A DNA stretch of 64,000 nt from Escherichia phage mogra. Positions 3,560-49,596 of the stretch are shown here, in pieces (positions within the stretch are counted from its first letter, which is position 1; each line of letters begins with the position of its first letter). The position numbers and the translations under genes were made by a program. The stretch lies in sequence record MN850579.1. One strand, 5' to 3'. The notes beneath the pieces are model-generated. The model was not told the DNA's origin. It was given only the letters and a program-made list of their open reading frames with translations, and made no database searches.

Positions 3560-4372
3560 TTAGAAACGAGATGCGACTTTCGCATATAAACTTACATTAG
3601 AATTCTGTTCTACCTGAGTTGTGGTAGTGTCAACTGCTTCGGCAACAAAATTAAGACCGGCAGCGTCATTGTCAACTGTATTTATACTTTCGGTAATAGC
3701 GGCTTCTTCTTTAGTAGAACCTTTAACCATTTCTACAATAGCAGTTAACTTAGTACCAAATGCGTCAGAATAATCCATACCTTCAACCAGGCCAATAACT
3801 TTTTCTTTCTGAGATTCAGTCAGGTCTTTTACGCTTTCATTAATAGCGGTTTCACGCTGAACGTAATTGATATATGCATCACGTTTGGTAACTTCTTCGA
3901 ACAAACGAGCGGTTTCTTCTTTATGTTCGGCCAGCTCTTCTTCCATTTCTGCTACAACATCTACAGATTCTTCTGGAACAACAACGTTATGTTCAACAAA
4001 CAGTTCTTTCAGACCACCAAGCATGGATTCGAACAAATCAGCTTTAATGCCTTTATCAACTGCGATTTGGTTTTCTGCGAGCCATTCTTTTGCAAGATGG
4101 TCTAGGAATTTAGAAGCTTGTTCAGCCAATTTTTTATCAGCTTTCTCTTCAGCATCTTCTTTAGCCTTTTCAACTTCTTCTTCGGCTTTTTCGGCGATAG
4201 CTTTGATATGAGATTCAGCTAGTTTGACTGCTTCCTGCTTAACGGTGGCTTCGAATACAGTGCTGAAATTAGCTTTAACGTCCGGAGACAGTTCTACTGA
4301 TTCGAAAACACTATTAAGAGCAACTGAAGTCTCGATATTCTGAGCTTCTTTCAAAAGTTGTTCTTTGATCAT
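3560..4372 (-). CDS. 22: gp22 prohead core scaffold protein
   Basis: 270 aa acidic coiled-coil ORF in T4 position upstream of gene 23. Confidence 0.9.
   Translation of the reverse strand: MIKEQLLKEAQNIETSVALNSVFESVELSPDVKANFSTVFEATVKQEAVKLAESHIKAIAEKAEEEVEKAKEDAEEKADKKLAEQASKFLDHLAKEWLAENQIAVDKGIKADLFESMLGGLKELFVEHNVVVPEESVDVVAEMEEELAEHKEETARLFEEVTKRDAYINYVQRETAINESVKDLTESQKEKVIGLVEGMDYSDAFGTKLTAIVEMVKGSTKEEAAITESINTVDNDAAGLNFVAEAVDTTTTQVEQNSNVSLYAKVASRF
3679..3686 (-). promoter_or_regulatory. Late promoter-like TATAAATA inside 3' end of gene 22 (candidate P23)
   Basis: Exact TATAAATA on minus strand 137 nt upstream of gene 23 ATG. Confidence 0.4.
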
Positions 4373-4402
4373 TTTAGTGTCCTGTGGTTTAGATTACATT
4401 AT

Positions 4403-4410
4403 TATTTATA
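4403..4410 (-). promoter_or_regulatory. Late promoter (TATAAATA) for gene 22
   Basis: TATAAATA on minus strand about 31 nt upstream of gene 22 ATG, overlapping gene 21 stop. Confidence 0.65.
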
Positions 4411-5047
4411 ATGCTTTTAAGCTCTCTGCGAGAGCTTTAAATGCTTCATCAGCACTGTTTTTGGTGATTTCCACCGAATTTTCTGATTCTGATATTTGTT
4501 TAGGAGTAACCCAAGCATCTGGAGCAGAAGGTCCCCATACGGCATCTACGCCGACGGTTAATTTAAATCCTTCGTTCACGATACGGTACCCTTTATTGGT
4601 GTCGGTTAAAGAACCAAGACCACGAGAGGAAACACCTGGAATCCAACCAGCTCGTATATTAGCAGCTAATTTATCACCGGGACCATGGTCGCCTTCAATA
4701 ATTCTAGCACGTCCATATACATCGTTTCCTTTCCACCACATATCTTCAATAATGATAGCGGCTTGCATAGGGTCAACATTTGCGCGAGGTGGATGGTTTA
4801 ATTCTCCAAGGGCTTGTTTGGTTGCGACTTGTTCTTTAATATAGTCACTTACTGCTTTTTCCAAAACGCGTTTAGGATATAAACGTTTATTTCGGTTAAC
4901 AACCTCTGCCTGAAGAAAAATACCTTCTATATAAAGCCCTGGTTTTAAGCCAGAATCTTTTCCATCATGAGATTCCAACATTGGAACGCCATCAATAATC
5001 TCACCGGGTTGACCCCAAGTTTCAATAAGTAACTCGGGTTTATTCAT
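4406..5047 (-). CDS. 21: gp21 prohead protease
   Basis: 213 aa; matches T4 gp21 ([31 protein letters not shown]...). Confidence 0.93.
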   Translation of the reverse strand: MNKPELLIETWGQPGEIIDGVPMLESHDGKDSGLKPGLYIEGIFLQAEVVNRNKRLYPKRVLEKAVSDYIKEQVATKQALGELNHPPRANVDPMQAAIIIEDMWWKGNDVYGRARIIEGDHGPGDKLAANIRAGWIPGVSSRGLGSLTDTNKGYRIVNEGFKLTVGVDAVWGPSAPDAWVTPKQISESENSVEITKNSADEAFKALAESLKAL

Positions 5048-36370: not shown

Positions 36371-36445
36371 GGCCCTGTAGCTCAATGGGAGAGCTGTCAG
36401 CTCATAACTGATAGGTAGCTGGATCGAAACCAGCCAGGGCCACCA
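36371..36445 (+). tRNA. tRNA with CAU anticodon (Ile2 with lysidine, or Met)
   Basis: Hand-folded cloverleaf: acceptor GGCCCTG/CAGGGCC, D arm GCTC-AATGGGA-GAGC, anticodon loop CTCATAA, T arm GCTGG/CCAGC, encoded CCA. Confidence 0.8.
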
Positions 36446-36545
36446 ATTCGCGGTGAGTACGCTCTTAGGTAGGTAAGTTGTTCGAATAAGGGTTAAAAGT
36501 AGAACCTACAAACGAGTAACCCTGAAACACCCAAAGCCGCATCAT

Positions 36546-36622
<77 letters not shown>

Positions 36623-38491: not shown

Positions 38492-38656
38492 ATGACTACT
38501 TTAATTATTTGGTTCGATGAAAATGAAGAAACATACTGTGTGAATATTGGTGAAAGTCCAATGCCTGAATTTGAATCCTCAGATAAAAACTCTGTTGTAT
38601 CTTGGGCTGAAGGTTATAAAGCAGCTAAAGGTGACGTTGAAATAATTTACATCTAA
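38492..38656 (+). CDS. Small hypothetical protein (54 aa)
   Basis: ATG 9 nt after GAGGAG; MTTLIIWFDENEETYCVNIGESP... Confidence 0.5.
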   Translation: MTTLIIWFDENEETYCVNIGESPMPEFESSDKNSVVSWAEGYKAAKGDVEIIYI

Positions 38657-38702
38657 GTAAGTTTATGTTATAGTAGTCCTATCAAATCAAGAGGAAAACA
38701 AA
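38646..38702 (+). promoter_or_regulatory. Early promoter cassette (PeSL)
   Basis: TTTACA -35 inside end of preceding ORF, 17-bp spacer, TATAGT -10, TAGTCCTATCAAA box. Confidence 0.55.
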
Positions 38703-38930: not shown

Positions 38931-39000
38931 TTTACAAACTCTTGAGAGCAGAGTATAATGCTCTCATTGGATAATAAACCACCAATTGAAAGGTAATAAT
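38931..39000 (+). promoter_or_regulatory. Early promoter in stem-loop
   Basis: TTTACA -35, 17-bp spacer, TATAAT -10 in loop of TGAGAGC/GCTCTCA hairpin. Confidence 0.7.
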
Positions 39001-39643: not shown

Positions 39644-40246
39644 ATGCGAAACCAAAATAATGATATTGACTCAATGTTCGAAGAGTTCCGAGATAAGGTA
39701 AATCCACCTACGTCTTTAGTTGATTCATTACGATATGTTGCAACTGGACGTAAATGGTACTGGTCGTCTTCTTATGAGACCACCGAGAAAACGGCTAGCC
39801 ATAGCAGAAAATCTTTATTAGCCCCAGGTATTATGATTCATGATATCGGAGCTATTGCTAAACTAGTTGCAGACCATGATATTAGATTCACTGATTTCGT
39901 TGCTCCTACGTGGTCTGTTTGTTGTTTAAACACTGAATGGGAATATATCAGCGAACGCTCTGAAGATTATTATGGCTTTAGAGATAAGCTTCTGAGGTCT
40001 AATATGTTTTATATCGATACAGAAGTTCTAGTCGATAATAAAAAATATTACTTTACGTTAATCATCGATTCTGAAACTATGTATGAAGGCAAGCCTTTGC
40101 TTAAGAGAGTTGATGCTTTAAGTGCTATTGATGCGCTTTATGAAACTATGGTTGTTAGTCCTAATTTCACTAATAATTTAATCCTTGAGCAATTTATTAT
40201 GGAATGTAGAGAATATGTCAAAGCCAACCCTATACATGCCAAGTAA
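39644..40246 (+). CDS. Hypothetical protein
   Basis: ATG after AAGGAG SD; about 200 aa; C-terminal ...QFIMECREYV. Confidence 0.65.
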   Translation: MRNQNNDIDSMFEEFRDKVNPPTSLVDSLRYVATGRKWYWSSSYETTEKTASHSRKSLLAPGIMIHDIGAIAKLVADHDIRFTDFVAPTWSVCCLNTEWEYISERSEDYYGFRDKLLRSNMFYIDTEVLVDNKKYYFTLIIDSETMYEGKPLLKRVDALSAIDALYETMVVSPNFTNNLILEQFIMECREYVKANPIHAK

Positions 40247-40610
40247 GCCCTGGGCGTATGAATACAAGCGTAAATTAATCCCAAATGAAGTATTATTTGG
40301 CCCTATTTTAGCTTTAGCATTTTTAATCTTTATGATTATAGGAGCTGTTTTAGATTCTAGTGAAGTTATATCGTCTGATGCAGCATTTTCATTAATGTTC
40401 GTCGCACCACTTATTGTACCGTTTTTATTAATGCCTATTAATTGGGTAGGATATTGGCACCAAGGCCGTCATCACAGAGCCCGATTAAGAGAATGGAAAG
40501 TTCAGTGCGCAAAAGCCCAAGCTCAGTATGATGAAGCTGTTAAAAAGTATGAATATGAAGAAGCTATGGAATTCGTTAAGGAAATAAGATGCAAAAGCCT
40601 CAACTCTTAA
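40215..40610 (+). CDS. Small membrane protein
   Basis: About 131 aa; two hydrophobic helices; start overlaps upstream gene. Confidence 0.55.
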   Translation: MSKPTLYMPSKPWAYEYKRKLIPNEVLFGPILALAFLIFMIIGAVLDSSEVISSDAAFSLMFVAPLIVPFLLMPINWVGYWHQGRHHRARLREWKVQCAKAQAQYDEAVKKYEYEEAMEFVKEIRCKSLNS

Positions 40611-40948
40611 CCGTATGGCCTTCTCTTGGTGAGAACATTCTAATTTTTATTATGAGTATTGGCATGGGATTTGCCTTTGGATTAGTTGGATTTCTTATTG
40701 ACGGCGTTGTGTTAGGATTTATAGGGAACACTGGTGGATTCACAGACCAATGGCAGGACTTACGGTATACCCAAGCCTTTGCATCCATCGCATCATTTTG
40801 TACTGTAGTCTATTTTTACTACGATTTTATAAACCATAACAAGAAAAATAAAAAGATTTACGCTTCTCAAATGATTAGTTATAATGAACTTCTAGCTAAA
40901 CGTGAAAATGAAACAATCGAAAACTTTATTAAGGAATGTAGAAAATGA
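40589..40948 (+). CDS. Small membrane protein, C-terminal NFIKECRK
   Basis: 119 aa; TM helices; C-terminal FIKECR motif shared with 43098 and 44091 genes. Confidence 0.65.
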   Translation: MQKPQLLTVWPSLGENILIFIMSIGMGFAFGLVGFLIDGVVLGFIGNTGGFTDQWQDLRYTQAFASIASFCTVVYFYYDFINHNKKNKKIYASQMISYNELLAKRENETIENFIKECRK

Positions 40949-41250
40949 GTAAGATTATTGAAATTAAAGTACCAGAGTTTAATGATGCCAAATCCGCTTC
41001 AGATGCAATTTATAAACTTCTGAATCAAGCTGAACGTATCGAAGAAGAAGCAACAAAGATCGCAGACCAATATGCCGTGTCATTTTCTGTAGGTGATTAT
41101 GGTAGCGGTCGTACTTATTATCCTAAGGGTGAAATCGTATCCCAGTGGATGAAAGATGAAATTGAAAATAATGGTGGCGATGTTAAGCGTGAAGGTAATG
41201 GTTACGTTATTACTGAAGGTGCTTGGGTTTCGTCTTCTGCGTTGTGCTAA
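40945..41250 (+). CDS. Small protein, paralog family member 1 (C-terminal GAWVSSSALC)
   Basis: 101 aa; ATGA overlap with upstream gene. Confidence 0.65.
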   Translation: MSKIIEIKVPEFNDAKSASDAIYKLLNQAERIEEEATKIADQYAVSFSVGDYGSGRTYYPKGEIVSQWMKDEIENNGGDVKREGNGYVITEGAWVSSSALC

Positions 41251-41259
41251 GGAATCATT

Positions 41260-41532
41260 ATGTCTAAAGAACAAACCGAACTGGCTGAAGCTGTAGCAAA
41301 AATCTATGCAGCTATTGAGGCTGCCAAAGAAATTGCTGATAAACAAAACACAACATTCAACTTGTACCCAGCTTATGGTATGGGTGGAACCTATCATTCA
41401 CCCAGACATCTTAAAGCCGATCTTGAACGTTGTACAAAAAACGGCTATGCTGAATGGGCTGACGTTTACCAATACGACTACAACCTGAGCCTCGAAACCG
41501 GTGGTTGGGTTGCATCTTCTCACACTTGCTAA
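41260..41532 (+). CDS. Small protein, paralog family member 2 (C-terminal GGWVASSHTC)
   Basis: 90 aa; SD TAAGGAA. Confidence 0.65.
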   Translation: MSKEQTELAEAVAKIYAAIEAAKEIADKQNTTFNLYPAYGMGGTYHSPRHLKADLERCTKNGYAEWADVYQYDYNLSLETGGWVASSHTC

Positions 41533-41541
41533 GGAAACAAT

Positions 41542-41739
41542 ATGTCTCGTGAATTAGATTGTGCTGTACGTACGGCAGTAGCTGCTCTGGAAAACCTGTT
41601 CCAAATTGCAACAGAAGAACGCGAAGAAGTTACATTATGGATTGAAGATAACGCAGGTCTGAATCTCCAGGACGCGATCTCATTATCCCACAATAGTATC
41701 ACTGTTCAAGGCTGGGTATCATCTAGTTATTCTTGCTAA
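41542..41739 (+). CDS. Small protein, paralog family member 3 (C-terminal QGWVSSSYSC)
   Basis: 65 aa; SD TAAGGAAA. Confidence 0.6.
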   Translation: MSRELDCAVRTAVAALENLFQIATEEREEVTLWIEDNAGLNLQDAISLSHNSITVQGWVSSSYSC

Positions 41740-41744
41740 AACAG

Positions 41745-41802
41745 TTTACAACAAGATAGGGCTATGTTATAGTAGTCCTATCAAAAACAAATGGAGTCCA
41801 CA
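41745..41802 (+). promoter_or_regulatory. Early promoter cassette (PeSL)
   Basis: TTTACA -35, TATAGT -10 in TAGGGCTA/TAGTCCTA hairpin, leader AAATGGAG. Confidence 0.7.
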
Positions 41803-42042
41803 ATGATTTATTACGAAAGTATCGGAACCAAAGTGGTTGGTAAAACCATTACTCGTGAAAAGTTTGCAAAGATATTCGATATGCGTTATAAAAAATCTGA
41901 ACACAAAGGCATCCGATTCGAAGATGCGCACTGTACAATTTGCCCTTATAATGAAGACATAAACGGTACAATCGTTCCATTGGTAGAGGCTTCACACGAT
42001 GACCTCTGGGACGAATATAATATCGCATGTCGTGAAATTTAA
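41803..42042 (+). CDS. Hypothetical protein
   Basis: 79 aa from second ATG (GGAG SD). Confidence 0.55.
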   Translation: MIYYESIGTKVVGKTITREKFAKIFDMRYKKSEHKGIRFEDAHCTICPYNEDINGTIVPLVEASHDDLWDEYNIACREI

Positions 42043-42070
42043 GTTAATGAATTAATCCGAGGAAAATATT

Positions 42071-43027
42071 ATGATGTTAGTTATTGGTTCTCGTGCACTT
42101 CACTATCACGGTCTTATTGATTCTAGCGCTATCAAAAATAGCGATTGGGACTTTATTGCGGACCAAGGTTCTTGGAATGCATTCAAAAATCAAATGATGG
42201 GTGTATATGTTCACCAAGATAACCCTGATGTCCAAGTTTTCAAATGCTTCCATAATGGACGCGAAACTCATTTTGAAGCATATATTGTTCCGGCAATCAC
42301 TAATGTCCGTGAATTAGTCGGTGAACTCACTCCTGAAGATTTCACGTCTTCTTATGACCTTTTAAAATACGCCAAGAAAAATTTGACTAAAGACCGTTTG
42401 AACGGGTTTTACTGGGCAACTCCTGAGATATGTCTTGCAATTAAGATGTCTCATCGTTTCAAGAAAAATAATCCATTCTTTTTAAAGACTATGAACCATA
42501 TTCAGTATCTTCGTGGTAAAGGTGTTACACTGAACGATGAACTTACTGAAATTATGCTGAAACGCCAGAAAGAAACCTTGAACTATGCTCACCCGGTTCT
42601 TGACACTTCTAAAAGTGCGTTCTTTAAAGATGACATCTATACATATGACCATGATACTATTCATGAAGCCATTGCACTAACAGACCGTCCGGCTTATACA
42701 TTTTATATGAAAGACGGTTCTGAAGTCATGACCTCACGCGAGAAGTTCGAATCGTTACCAGAAATGGTCAAATTGGCCGGTGTATATGAAGAATCATGTG
42801 TACTAGCATTAGAACGTTCTCAGATTCCTAATGACTTTAAAATTAACCCTGAAGCCAGTTTCATGATGGCATTAGAAAAAGTCTGCACAAGCATCACCTC
42901 CGGTTGGTTCCGTGAATACGCCTGGGAAAACTACAGCAAAGTAGTAAGTATGTACCAAAGCTTAGGACATAACGATTACGTCAAACGTTTCAAACAAAAT
43001 TTCCATATGGTAAAACCTTTCAAATAA
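42071..43027 (+). CDS. Nucleotidyltransferase-fold protein (pol-beta superfamily, AbiEii/DUF1814-like motif)
   Basis: 318 aa; N-terminal VIGSRALHYHGL...SDWDF fits hG[GS]...[DE]h[DE] NTase motif. Confidence 0.5.
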   Translation: MMLVIGSRALHYHGLIDSSAIKNSDWDFIADQGSWNAFKNQMMGVYVHQDNPDVQVFKCFHNGRETHFEAYIVPAITNVRELVGELTPEDFTSSYDLLKYAKKNLTKDRLNGFYWATPEICLAIKMSHRFKKNNPFFLKTMNHIQYLRGKGVTLNDELTEIMLKRQKETLNYAHPVLDTSKSAFFKDDIYTYDHDTIHEAIALTDRPAYTFYMKDGSEVMTSREKFESLPEMVKLAGVYEESCVLALERSQIPNDFKINPEASFMMALEKVCTSITSGWFREYAWENYSKVVSMYQSLGHNDYVKRFKQNFHMVKPFK

Positions 43028-43040
43028 TTTCGCAAAACTG

Positions 43041-43097
43041 TTTACACAATTATAGGACTATGTTATAGTAGTCCTACCAAAACATGAGGAGAATATT
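43041..43097 (+). promoter_or_regulatory. Early promoter cassette (PeSL)
   Basis: TTTACA -35, TATAGT -10 in TAGGACTA/TAGTCCTA hairpin. Confidence 0.7.
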
Positions 43098-43403
43098 ATG
43101 AAATTAGGCGAAACCAACCGAATTGGTCTTTTAACAATATTTGCATCACTTTTTTACGCAACTCTTTCTGTTGCAGTATTACAAAAGGCTTACAGTATGG
43201 ATGGTGTGCCTGGTTGTATATTCTTATCACCGTTTTTATTATTCGTCGGAGCTTTGTTATTATATGCCACGACTAGTTTCGACCATAATGTCTGGGTCAA
43301 TTATAAACGTAAATTGACCGAAGAAGAACACGCAGAAGCTCGTAAAAAAGCTATTGAATCTACCAATCTAGAAAATTTCATTAAAGAATGTCGAGGAAAA
43401 TAA
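43098..43403 (+). CDS. Small membrane protein, C-terminal NFIKECRGK
   Basis: 101 aa; two TM helices; FIKECR C-terminal motif. Confidence 0.65.
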   Translation: MKLGETNRIGLLTIFASLFYATLSVAVLQKAYSMDGVPGCIFLSPFLLFVGALLLYATTSFDHNVWVNYKRKLTEEEHAEARKKAIESTNLENFIKECRGK

Positions 43404-43404
43404 T

Positions 43405-44091
43405 ATGAATAGTTCTAAAGTGTTTAATAGTCAAGCTCGTGCAATAGGTGGTTTTGCTCATGCGATTAAAAACGACCAGATTAAAAACGAGCCTATGTTC
43501 TTTAACTGCGATTTGAATTTTGCTTTTGATAATGGCGGCCCAATTACTCGTAGCTTTATCCAAAATCTCCCTGACGATTGGAAAGACTCGGATGTAGTAT
43601 TTGATTCACGAGTCCACATGCTGATGCCTGGTTGGTACCCTGCTATTCCTGGATATCACCATGACGATGTTCCACGCCCTGATATTCCAGTTGGTCAACA
43701 TTTTATTACTGCAGGACAACCTGATTATGACAATCCTCGCTATTTGTCTGAACATATTCTTGGTCTTGTTAACGCTGATGTGTGTCCTACTCATTTTGCA
43801 ACAGGAACTGCAGAGTTCAGTCAGATTCCTGATGGCGAACTTATCTATCGCCAGTGGCACAAAGAAGTCCTCGAAAAAATCGAAAAAGGCGAACTAGAGA
43901 AATGGGAAGCTCCAGACCGTACTCTTCTTCAGTTTGATTGGCAAACATGGCACACTGGTTCTCGTGCAATTAGTAATGGATGGCGTTGGTTCGGACGTGT
44001 ATCTCGTAATACAGACCGAGTTAAAAAGATTACCAATGAAATTCGTGTCAATGCCCAAGTTTATCTGGAATTCCCTATGGAAGGTTGGTAA
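43405..44091 (+). CDS. Hypothetical protein (contains PGYHHDD motif)
   Basis: 228 aa ORF, translationally coupled. Confidence 0.65.
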   Translation: MNSSKVFNSQARAIGGFAHAIKNDQIKNEPMFFNCDLNFAFDNGGPITRSFIQNLPDDWKDSDVVFDSRVHMLMPGWYPAIPGYHHDDVPRPDIPVGQHFITAGQPDYDNPRYLSEHILGLVNADVCPTHFATGTAEFSQIPDGELIYRQWHKEVLEKIEKGELEKWEAPDRTLLQFDWQTWHTGSRAISNGWRWFGRVSRNTDRVKKITNEIRVNAQVYLEFPMEGW

Positions 44092-44582
44092 TGATTAACA
44101 AAACATATTGGTCTAATATAGACGATGGCAACGAAGGTATTTCGTATTATTCGGTAGATTGGACAGGATGTCCATCCTACTTAGTGAAACATATTTGCCA
44201 AGAATTTAAAATCTACCAGCCAGCAGGTATTATTGTGAACAGATACATTAATGGATATCAACCTATCGATGAAGTAATACGAACAACTCAAGCTGAGCTT
44301 GAAAAGTTTTTCAATAAGTGCCAATGGATAACAGGATGGATTATATTTGTACCGTCTATATGGTTTTTTAGTACTAAAGTAAGTGCCTTTGCTGTACTAG
44401 ATATTATCGCTATCTTATTAGCATCTACTATCGTAAGTATTATTGGTGGTATTATTGGTGGAGGTATTGTAGGCATCATTATTAATCTTATTAAAAGTAG
44501 TTTACAAGAACATAAAGACAAGATAAAAGCCAAGAATAATGAAGTTGAACGTTTTATTACCGAATGCAGGAATTTGAGATGA
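44091..44582 (+). CDS. Membrane protein with Gly-rich TM segment, C-terminal RFITECRNLR
   Basis: 163 aa; TAATG overlap with upstream stop; IIGGIIGGGIVGIII hydrophobic segment. Confidence 0.65.
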   Translation: MINKTYWSNIDDGNEGISYYSVDWTGCPSYLVKHICQEFKIYQPAGIIVNRYINGYQPIDEVIRTTQAELEKFFNKCQWITGWIIFVPSIWFFSTKVSAFAVLDIIAILLASTIVSIIGGIIGGGIVGIIINLIKSSLQEHKDKIKAKNNEVERFITECRNLR

Positions 44583-49116: not shown

Positions 49117-49340
49117 TGGCTAAATTGATTATAGAAGGGTCTGAAGATGTTTTAAAATGTTTTGCCGCCTGGTTTAGTTGCTCAGGCGAGCAATCATTCA
49201 TTGAAGCATTTAGAACGGGTGATATTACTGGAAACTATCCGACAACTGATATCACTGTACGTGGATATGGTATTAATGAGCCTATCCAATTGGTCGAATA
49301 TGACCTTGCCACCGATGAGGAAATTCCTTATGTCGATTGA
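49116..49340 (+). CDS. Hypothetical protein
   Basis: 74 aa, ATGA overlap with upstream gene. Confidence 0.55.
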   Translation: MAKLIIEGSEDVLKCFAAWFSCSGEQSFIEAFRTGDITGNYPTTDITVRGYGINEPIQLVEYDLATDEEIPYVD

Positions 49341-49596
49341 AGACATCAAAGGCTACAAGCCACATACCGACGATAAAATCAGTAAAGTGAACGCTATTAA
49401 AGATGCAGAAGTCCGTCTTGGATTGATGTTTGATGCTCTGATTGAAGAAGCATATATCTTTAAAGAAAATGAAACAGAGCAACAAACCAAAGAAGATATG
49501 GATGCAGTGCAGGCTCTTAAGTATGCTAAGCAACATCTAAAAGAAGCCAGCATGTGGGCATGTCGTGCAGTATTTCGACCTGAGGAAAAATACTAA
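49330..49596 (+). CDS. Hypothetical protein
   Basis: 88 aa from internal Met of ORF-track 49162 ORF. Confidence 0.55.

Follow-up and report, generated by a model that had tools for sequence, protein, structure and literature searches.

Diversifying small phage proteins with a near-invariant C-terminal tail are encoded beside a nucleotidyltransferase-fold protein in large phages

Three consecutive genes of Escherichia phage mogra encode small acidic proteins which, judged from their sequences, are diverged tandem paralogs, the third in a shortened form, and which share a near-invariant C-terminal tail. We call the family S and the three genes S1, S2 and S3. Downstream of them, on the same strand, follows a gene for a protein (NT) with a nucleotidyltransferase (NTase) fold and an intact catalytic triad, and this S-to-NT synteny is near-obligate across distant phages. 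Our best reading is that the S proteins are either substrates of NT, which we favor, or its regulators. We give about an even chance to the more specific proposal that S and NT form a two-component module in which the tail is the element that engages NT, most likely as a substrate for nucleotidylylation.

The window, i.e. the whole 64-kb stretch of DNA that was analyzed, derives from an RB69-like T4-type phage (Mosigvirus); over positions 40000-43000 its DNA is 98% identical to that of vB_Eco_F27 and RB69. The S genes are placed in a variable region bounded by the lysozyme gene e and tRNA genes, the S-NT module being about 4.3 kb away from the latter (Table 1). In RB69 the three ORFs are annotated as RB69ORF139c plus 138c, 137c and 136c, all “hypothetical” and flanked by e.3 upstream and by ORF135c and ORF134c downstream. 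The RB69 annotation gives them no T4 counterparts, and the S-family HMM found no member in the first 50 kb of phage T4. The ATG of S1 overlaps the stop codon of e.3 (ATGA), and an AAGGAA ribosome-binding site (RBS) precedes each of the three genes. Between the array and NT stand a promoter-like site and one extra gene of 83 codons. The product of the latter (PHROG 3723) is present in four loci only, all from T4-like relatives, and because of this restriction we leave it outside the conserved pair.

Table 1. Positions of the S genes, NT and neighboring features in the window
Feature	Position	Strand	Basis
tRNA-Met and tRNA-Arg	36371-36622		
Tentative sigma-70-type promoter-like site, TTTACG-17-TATAAT, 60 nt 5' of S1	40857..40885	+	Consensus match only
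S1, small acidic protein, 101 aa, pI 4.6, end GAWVSSSALC; homologue of RB69ORF139c+138c	40945..41250	+	ORF, PHROG 899, family HMM
Tail motif WVSSSALC of S1	41224..41247	+	
S2, small acidic protein, 90 aa, pI 5.2, end GGWVASSHTC; homologue of RB69ORF137c	41260..41532	+	ORF, PHROG 899, family HMM
Tail motif WVASSHTC of S2	41506..41529	+	
S3, shortened paralog, 65 aa, pI 4.2, end QGWVSSSYSC; homologue of RB69ORF136c	41542..41739	+	ORF, PHROG 4882, family HMM
Tail motif WVSSSYSC of S3	41713..41736	+	
Tentative sigma-70-type promoter-like site, TTTACA-17-TATAGT with TG, 3' of S3 and ahead of the genes that lead up to NT	41745..41773	+	Consensus match only
83-aa ORF between the array and NT; RB69ORF135c homologue, PHROG 3723	41791..42042	+	
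NT, conserved partner gene, 318 aa; RB69ORF134c homologue	42071..43027	+	Pfam DUF7277+DUF7275

Strong sigma-70-type promoter-like sites recur between genes in this part of the window. In addition to the one that follows S3, they are found at 43041-43069, 38646-38674 and 38931-38959; all four read TTTACA-17-TATAGT or TATAAT, three of the four have a preceding TG, and they are typical of T4-type early promoters. In the RB69 reference record (AY303349) one extra T (CAGTGG-T-ATG), falling at window positions 41148-41149, divides the 101-aa gene between RB69ORF139c and ORF138c. The intact 101-aa ORF occurs at ≥99% identity in 126 other phage records, and the extra T reflects an error of sequencing or else a frameshift peculiar to the strain. 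Further downstream, a 228-aa ORF at 43405-44091 (RB69ORF132c homologue, PHROG 1843) had no match in Pfam or NCBIfam and contains the His/Asp-rich stretch GYHHDDVPRPD.

An earlier note on this DNA had read three consecutive ORFs with the lengths and C-termini listed in Table 1, and this is exactly what the sequence holds, all on the + strand. In a six-frame scan of the window, W[VLIM][SA]SS..C was found solely at the ends of these three ORFs. Pairwise BLASTP comparisons of S1, S2 and S3 gave E values of 0.002, 3e-4 and 0.001. A family HMM of 157 relatives matched S1 at 1e-22, S2 at 6e-24 and S3 at 1.4e-4, and no other ORF of the window scored below E = 2.7. Profile matches assigned S1 (1.3e-22) and S2 (2.4e-18) to phrog_899 and S3 (7.7e-37) to phrog_4882, both phage families of unknown function. 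S2 has the family core motif YGMGGTY, and S3 is without the YG.GG.Y core. The same note described the N-terminal helical regions as different, but they are not unrelated: the 101- and 90-aa proteins both belong to PHROG 899, and the 65-aa subfamily, taken without its tail, aligns in register with the family N-terminal helix, albeit weakly (hhalign P = 7.5e-4). When the last ten residues were removed from the tail-bearing ORFs, 198 of 221 still joined one BLAST cluster. Given this tail-less clustering and the in-register helix alignment, S1, S2 and S3 can be regarded as true paralogs.

Compared with orthologues in other genera, the S genes have dN/dS ratios of 0.14-0.44, at a dS near saturation, and pN is far below pS; they are therefore real coding genes under purifying selection. 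In the same phage pairs the S bodies are 43-63% identical as against 67-76% for the neighboring NT. Of the two explanations in the earlier note, the one that sees paralogs diversifying around a constant C-terminal motif is thus borne out at the level of sequence, by a family of 578 clusters in which the bodies diverge faster than the enzyme and the tail is near-invariant. The NT gene downstream, which proved to be the telling part of the context, does not figure in the note.

The other explanation, that the shared 3' end and RBS serve as a junction at which recombining cassettes swap gene bodies, is scarcely credible. It could draw on the occurrence of TGCTAAGGAA after S1 (at 41245) and S2 (at 41527), and on the fact that paralog order and number differ between related genera, the 65-aa type being, for example, the third gene of JS98-like arrays but the fifth of L083-like ones. 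However, the DNA-level conservation of 3' ends and RBS holds for the first two genes and fails for the third, which has TGCTAAAACA. The longest exact run shared is 10 nt and amounts merely to the codon for Cys, the stop TAA and the RBS of the next gene, and TAAGGA is common, occurring 16 times on the + strand of the window. Within the motif the codons show synonymous differences (TCG/GCA/TCA, TCT/AGT, GTT/GTA), so the likeness of the DNA is what protein conservation would produce. Direct repeats of a length that would permit homologous exchange are lacking, what is conserved is the protein, in phages between which synonymous DNA change has reached saturation, and purifying selection on the S genes as ordinary coding genes also counts against such cassettes.

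Word-indexed searches returned few S relatives, yet the common architecture was already visible in them. A profile search run exhaustively over 1.84 billion representatives (cut-off E ≤ 1e-3) yielded 578 clusters at 50% identity, nearly all of them 65-145 aa long and matched through the last residue. The proteins begin with a helix ending in A-x-x-IAD. Next come a strand (F-x-F), a loop rich in Gly (YG(M/S)GGTYYP) and a linker that is acidic and contains Trp, and the very end reads G-x-W-x-S-S-S-x-x-C. Among 157 members the median length is 87 aa, the pI 4.5 and the net charge -8. The search of relatives for the motif that the earlier note had proposed came out in its favor: the Cys-ended tail is kept by 147 of the 157, and eight more carry one extra residue after the Cys. 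Trp at position -8 and Ser at -5 and -4 vary hardly at all, Ser, Ala or Pro occupies position -6, and Gly is the commonest residue at -10 (81 of 147) and -9 (88 of 147). The terminal Cys is the sole Cys in 99 of the 157. The spacing from the Ser pair to the Cys ranges from 0 to 3 residues, and S1, S2 and S3 all fit the definition W-x-[S/A/P]-S-S-x(0-3)-C of this small S-tail family.

The tail appears to behave like a linear motif. In about a fifth of the members W-x-x-S-[S/D/E] occurs once more inside the protein, one subfamily carries the full motif twice (DWLNSSC...IWYPSSC), and the 65-aa paralog retained the tail after losing the family core. A few tail-bearing bodies could not be linked to the S family by BLAST.

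In an AF2 model of S1 (pLDDT 89) a long helix is followed by a small sheet with W-V-S-S as its last strand. In this monomer W94-S98 packs on the body (pLDDT 84 for residues 91-100) and only the last residues are flexible. Conservation of the tail could therefore be partly structural. The stronger form of this explanation is that the tail is an intrinsic structural, oligomerization or metal-binding element of S and that NT is a mere co-functioning neighbor which never touches it. For example, the Trp would anchor the last strand, the terminal Cys residues of several subunits would share a metal or a disulfide, and the long N-terminal helix could drive oligomer formation. The single conserved Cys is compatible with this, and any thiol role would be intermolecular since one Cys cannot form an intramolecular site. 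On the other hand, the motif recurs internally in acidic linkers, outlasts the loss of the core and sits on a few bodies that BLAST cannot tie to the family, none of which is expected of a purely structural strand, and the strict synteny with NT would be left unexplained. We consider this explanation rather improbable.

The S1 model had no fold match among PDB structures, no PDB chain matched the S1 sequence with E < 0.1, and Foldseek of the S model against viral models matched only uncharacterized family members. The S proteins had no credible match in Pfam, NCBIfam or PADLOC. In particular, no HEPN domain (R-x4-6-H) was found in them with Pfam or PADLOC, and S1, S2 and NT had no significant match to PADLOC defense or anti-defense models.

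To survey loci starting from S, we used a degenerate DNA pattern for YGMGGTY on IMG/VR, which was present in 73 stretches, 43 of them with S members. Arrays of two or three S genes were common and the maximum was six per locus. Clustering of neighboring ORFs gave one outstanding partner, a protein of about 315 aa (NT), in 34 of 44 loci, and wherever an S locus had enough downstream DNA, NT was found downstream on the same strand.

A reverse survey of IMG/VR was started from NT alone, with the peptide patterns SITSG[WY]FR and CVLALER[SC]. An HMM-detectable S gene lay within 3 kb upstream on the same strand in 71 of 80 NT loci. Nine loci had no such gene, 21 had one, 30 had two, 16 had three, one had four and three had five; ORFs missed by the HMM and further upstream still end in the tail, including some in several of the “zero” loci. 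A regular expression for the tail matched 221 of 1617 upstream same-strand ORF segments compared to 9 of 2532 others on the + strand and none of 5764 on the minus strand. Across 22 NT lineages (<60% identity) S was the only other common gene family, present in 18, and the next best family occurred in four.

The pair is found in differing contexts, in T4-like phages, Phapecoctavirus ukendt, Otagovirus M5.1, Acinetobacter phage Berthold and jumbo phages, which suggests that it moves as a unit. NT homologues occur in 733 of 50,697 GenBank phage records and in at least 22 lineages, from phages of enterobacteria to those of Acinetobacter, Pseudomonas and Aeromonas and including jumbo phages, and on only six MAG contigs among 185,579 bacterial and archaeal species genomes. 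Being near-absent from cellular genomes, the module appears to be phage-specific. Proteins in which S and NT are fused were absent from the best 150 S-family matches and from the 120 NT homologues listed.

The N-terminal domain of NT (DUF7277) is of the Pol-beta nucleotidyltransferase type. Its catalytic residues, G6 S7, D25 x D27 and E69, are invariant among 37 diverse homologues within an otherwise poorly conserved domain, and in the model of NT (pLDDT 90) they map to strands 1, 2 and 5. NT has the features by which the Pol-beta superfamily is recognized: hG[GS]...[DE]h[DE]h, a third carboxylate on a later strand and the NTase alpha/beta fold. The helical second domain (DUF7275) is very highly conserved and has an invariant set of His, Asp and Glu residues; conserved C-terminal blocks in the 37 homologues are K-M-S-H-R, Y-D-H-D-x-I-H, G-V-Y-E-E-x-C-V-L-A-L-E-R and K-V-C-T-S-I-T-S-G-W-F-R-E. 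NT matched no PDB sequence, either as a single sequence or as a profile, and it lacks the PolyA_pol head domain (Pfam PF01743) of class II CCA-adding enzymes and poly(A) polymerases. Its closest structural relatives act on tRNA or small molecules, not proteins. One NT homologue carries the label “prohead assembly scaffold protein”, which looks like automatic annotation and was set aside.

A few NT lineages are without S (L098, L117 to L119, L144, and those of Gordonia and Streptomyces phages), indicating that NT can function without it. The actinophage homologues, in Gordonia phage ClubL (L166, 2309-3100) and Streptomyces phage Muntaha (L167, 2351-3097), are shorter (248-263 aa) and have no S upstream. 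They keep GS...DxD, the NTase triad and the His/Asp/Glu set. What they have lost is a further layer of residues, C243 and C272 among them, that S-linked lineages conserve. This loss would fit a surface of NT devoted to S, a faint hint at best, as it may reflect only evolutionary distance. One metagenomic lineage (L117, L119 and L144) has NT and no S. The NT frame of L119 is broken in two pieces (3788-4711), possibly a sign that NT decays in the absence of S, and Arg replaces Trp279 of S-G-W-F-R-E in L117 and L144.

The simplest reading of diversifying bodies, a near-invariant linear motif and linkage to an NTase with an intact active site is that the tail is a handle to NT. In the model that we favor, the S bodies diversify and would supply different specificities while the tail W-x-[S/A/P]-S-S-x(0-3)-Cys stays constant as the element that NT docks. 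NT would then transfer a nucleotide onto the invariant Ser pair, protein O-nucleotidylylation being the most likely chemistry, and the DUF7275 domain would hold or process the tail. NTase-fold enzymes are known to act in this way on hydroxyl groups of proteins and antibiotics. Points against the model are the NT lineages that lack S, the absence of S-NT fusions from the matches listed, the promoter-like site and the extra gene that stand between the array and NT in the window, the packing of the tail strand in the S1 monomer, and the tRNA or small-molecule targets of the structural relatives of NT. An extension that we regard as a long shot is that, once NT has nucleotidylylated the Ser pair, DUF7275 eliminates the nucleotide, leaving a dehydroalanine to which the Cys adds, so that a thioether ring closes at the C-terminus; S-x-x-C spacing is that of lanthionine and AviCys rings. 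If this were true, the phages would have a system that writes a universal C-terminal tag on diversifying small effector or adaptor proteins.

A related proposal, which we judge very improbable, makes S a RiPP-like precursor: the tail octapeptide, often after Gly-Gly, would be modified, for instance through dehydration of Ser and a thioether bond to the terminal Cys, and possibly released, the S body being a long leader. The i, i+3 distance between Ser -4 and Cys -1 is that of the lanthionine and C-terminal AviCys rings of epidermin-type lanthipeptides, the frequent Gly residues at -10 and -9 also speak for the proposal, and tandem precursor genes beside one modifying enzyme are known from Nif11/NHLP-type arrays, which S resembles in having several paralogous small genes beside one enzyme and a Ser/Cys C-terminal segment. 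However, S arrays differ from these in that the C-terminal part is constant and the N-terminal part variable, the reverse of “core” and “leader” in known precursor arrays, and in that the S bodies are predicted to be folded domains. The spacing from the Ser pair to the Cys is not fixed. Moreover, the genes conserved around S in the 22 NT lineages include none for a known RiPP enzyme family, be it a dehydratase, a cyclase, a LanD-type decarboxylase, a radical-SAM enzyme or a leader peptidase, and Pfam gave no match to LanB/C, LanM, LanKC/L or LanD among the neighbors in the window.

For nucleotidylylation there are precedents, and an NTase with a dedicated small-protein partner is the probable class of mechanism, as far as comparison with known systems can tell. 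In GlnD-PII an NTase enzyme with an HD domain uridylylates a Tyr residue, and in MntA-HepT a Tyr residue is AMPylated. Like these, NT has a Pol-beta-fold NTase domain and is paired with a small protein bearing an invariant hydroxyl residue, and like GlnD it has a second domain, whose invariant His/Asp/Glu set could be that of a phosphohydrolase. DUF7275 was considered as a possible HD-domain phosphohydrolase, a class defined by an H...HD...D metal-binding motif in an HD fold. In contrast to both systems, S has no sequence or fold similarity to PII or HEPN, neither NT nor S matched the HD, ACT or HEPN families of Pfam, and the nucleotide would be accepted by the Ser pair of the C-terminal tail and not by a Tyr in a loop. 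The antibiotic nucleotidyltransferases ANT(2'') and LnuA act on small molecules and have neither a partner protein nor DUF7275.

The main rival to the substrate model is an arrangement like that of MenAT1. MenT/AbiEii toxins are recognized by the addition of nucleotides to tRNA 3' ends and by a toxicity that the cognate antitoxin, encoded upstream, neutralizes. They contain a DUF1814 NTase domain, and MenA1, a 68-aa protein usually encoded upstream of menT, blocks the active site of MenT1 (PMC10435456). By analogy, NT would be MenT-like and target tRNA or another nucleic acid, and the S proteins would be inhibitors or timers whose tail plugs the active site as a pseudo-substrate. We regard this as unlikely while giving it serious weight. 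The S genes are always upstream, small and acidic as expected of such blockers, and tRNA genes lie near both the module of the window and the NT gene of ClubL, which is about 1.2 kb from a tRNA cluster. On the other hand, NT is not basic (pI 6.6), and DUF1814 was not detected in it or its 37 homologues even at E ≤ 10; instead there is a large extra conserved domain, DUF7275. S has no similarity to MenA1 or to COG5340 antitoxins, and arrays with up to five or six different “antitoxins” per enzyme are unlike known toxin-antitoxin pairs. Such a pair would be expected to spread in cellular genomes, where the module is near-absent: unlike MenAT/AbiE, which reside on bacterial chromosomes, S-NT is confined to lytic and large phages. 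Finally, some NT lineages persist without S, and the invariant Ser-Ser...Cys motif suggests chemistry over mere plugging.

Other genes near the module were also noted. A second Cys-tailed family consists of the homologues of e.3, RB69ORF133c and e.2 (40589-40948, 43098-43403 and 44040-44582), predicted small membrane proteins with the common C-terminal tail [E/R]-x-F-I-[K/T]-E-C-R; L098 has similar endings as well. The homologue of e.4 in phage F27 is labeled “sulfurtransferase”, which looks like automatic annotation and was set aside. In phage ukendt a gene of the Acb2/Tad1-hairpin family of anti-CBASS/anti-Thoeris sponges (Pfam 1.2e-16) lies inside the S array (L164, 1638-1913), and a 60% identical Acb2 homologue is encoded at 49330-49593 of the window, about 6 kb downstream of NT. 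This hints at an anti-defense neighborhood. As a general argument for an anti-defense role the association was rejected, as it falls within the array only in ukendt and is about 6 kb off in the window.

We found no description of the motif, the S family, the NT family or their linkage in the literature, and a comparative paper on jumbo phages does not mention the module. Both partners are in databases solely as families of unknown function. As S matches no known fold or family, and NT and S together do not have the features of any known class of NTase and partner, the module appears to stand outside the known kinds. The fast-evolving S bodies and their variable copy number make it a candidate for a module of host-phage conflict, and from this we infer a possible downstream role in, for example, host takeover or counter-defense. 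If the tail is indeed the handle by which one enzyme acts on changing small proteins or is controlled by them, S and NT would constitute a new and widespread two-component system of large phages. Two uncharacterized Pfam domains and two PHROG families would thereby gain a role, and a new protein modification may come to light.
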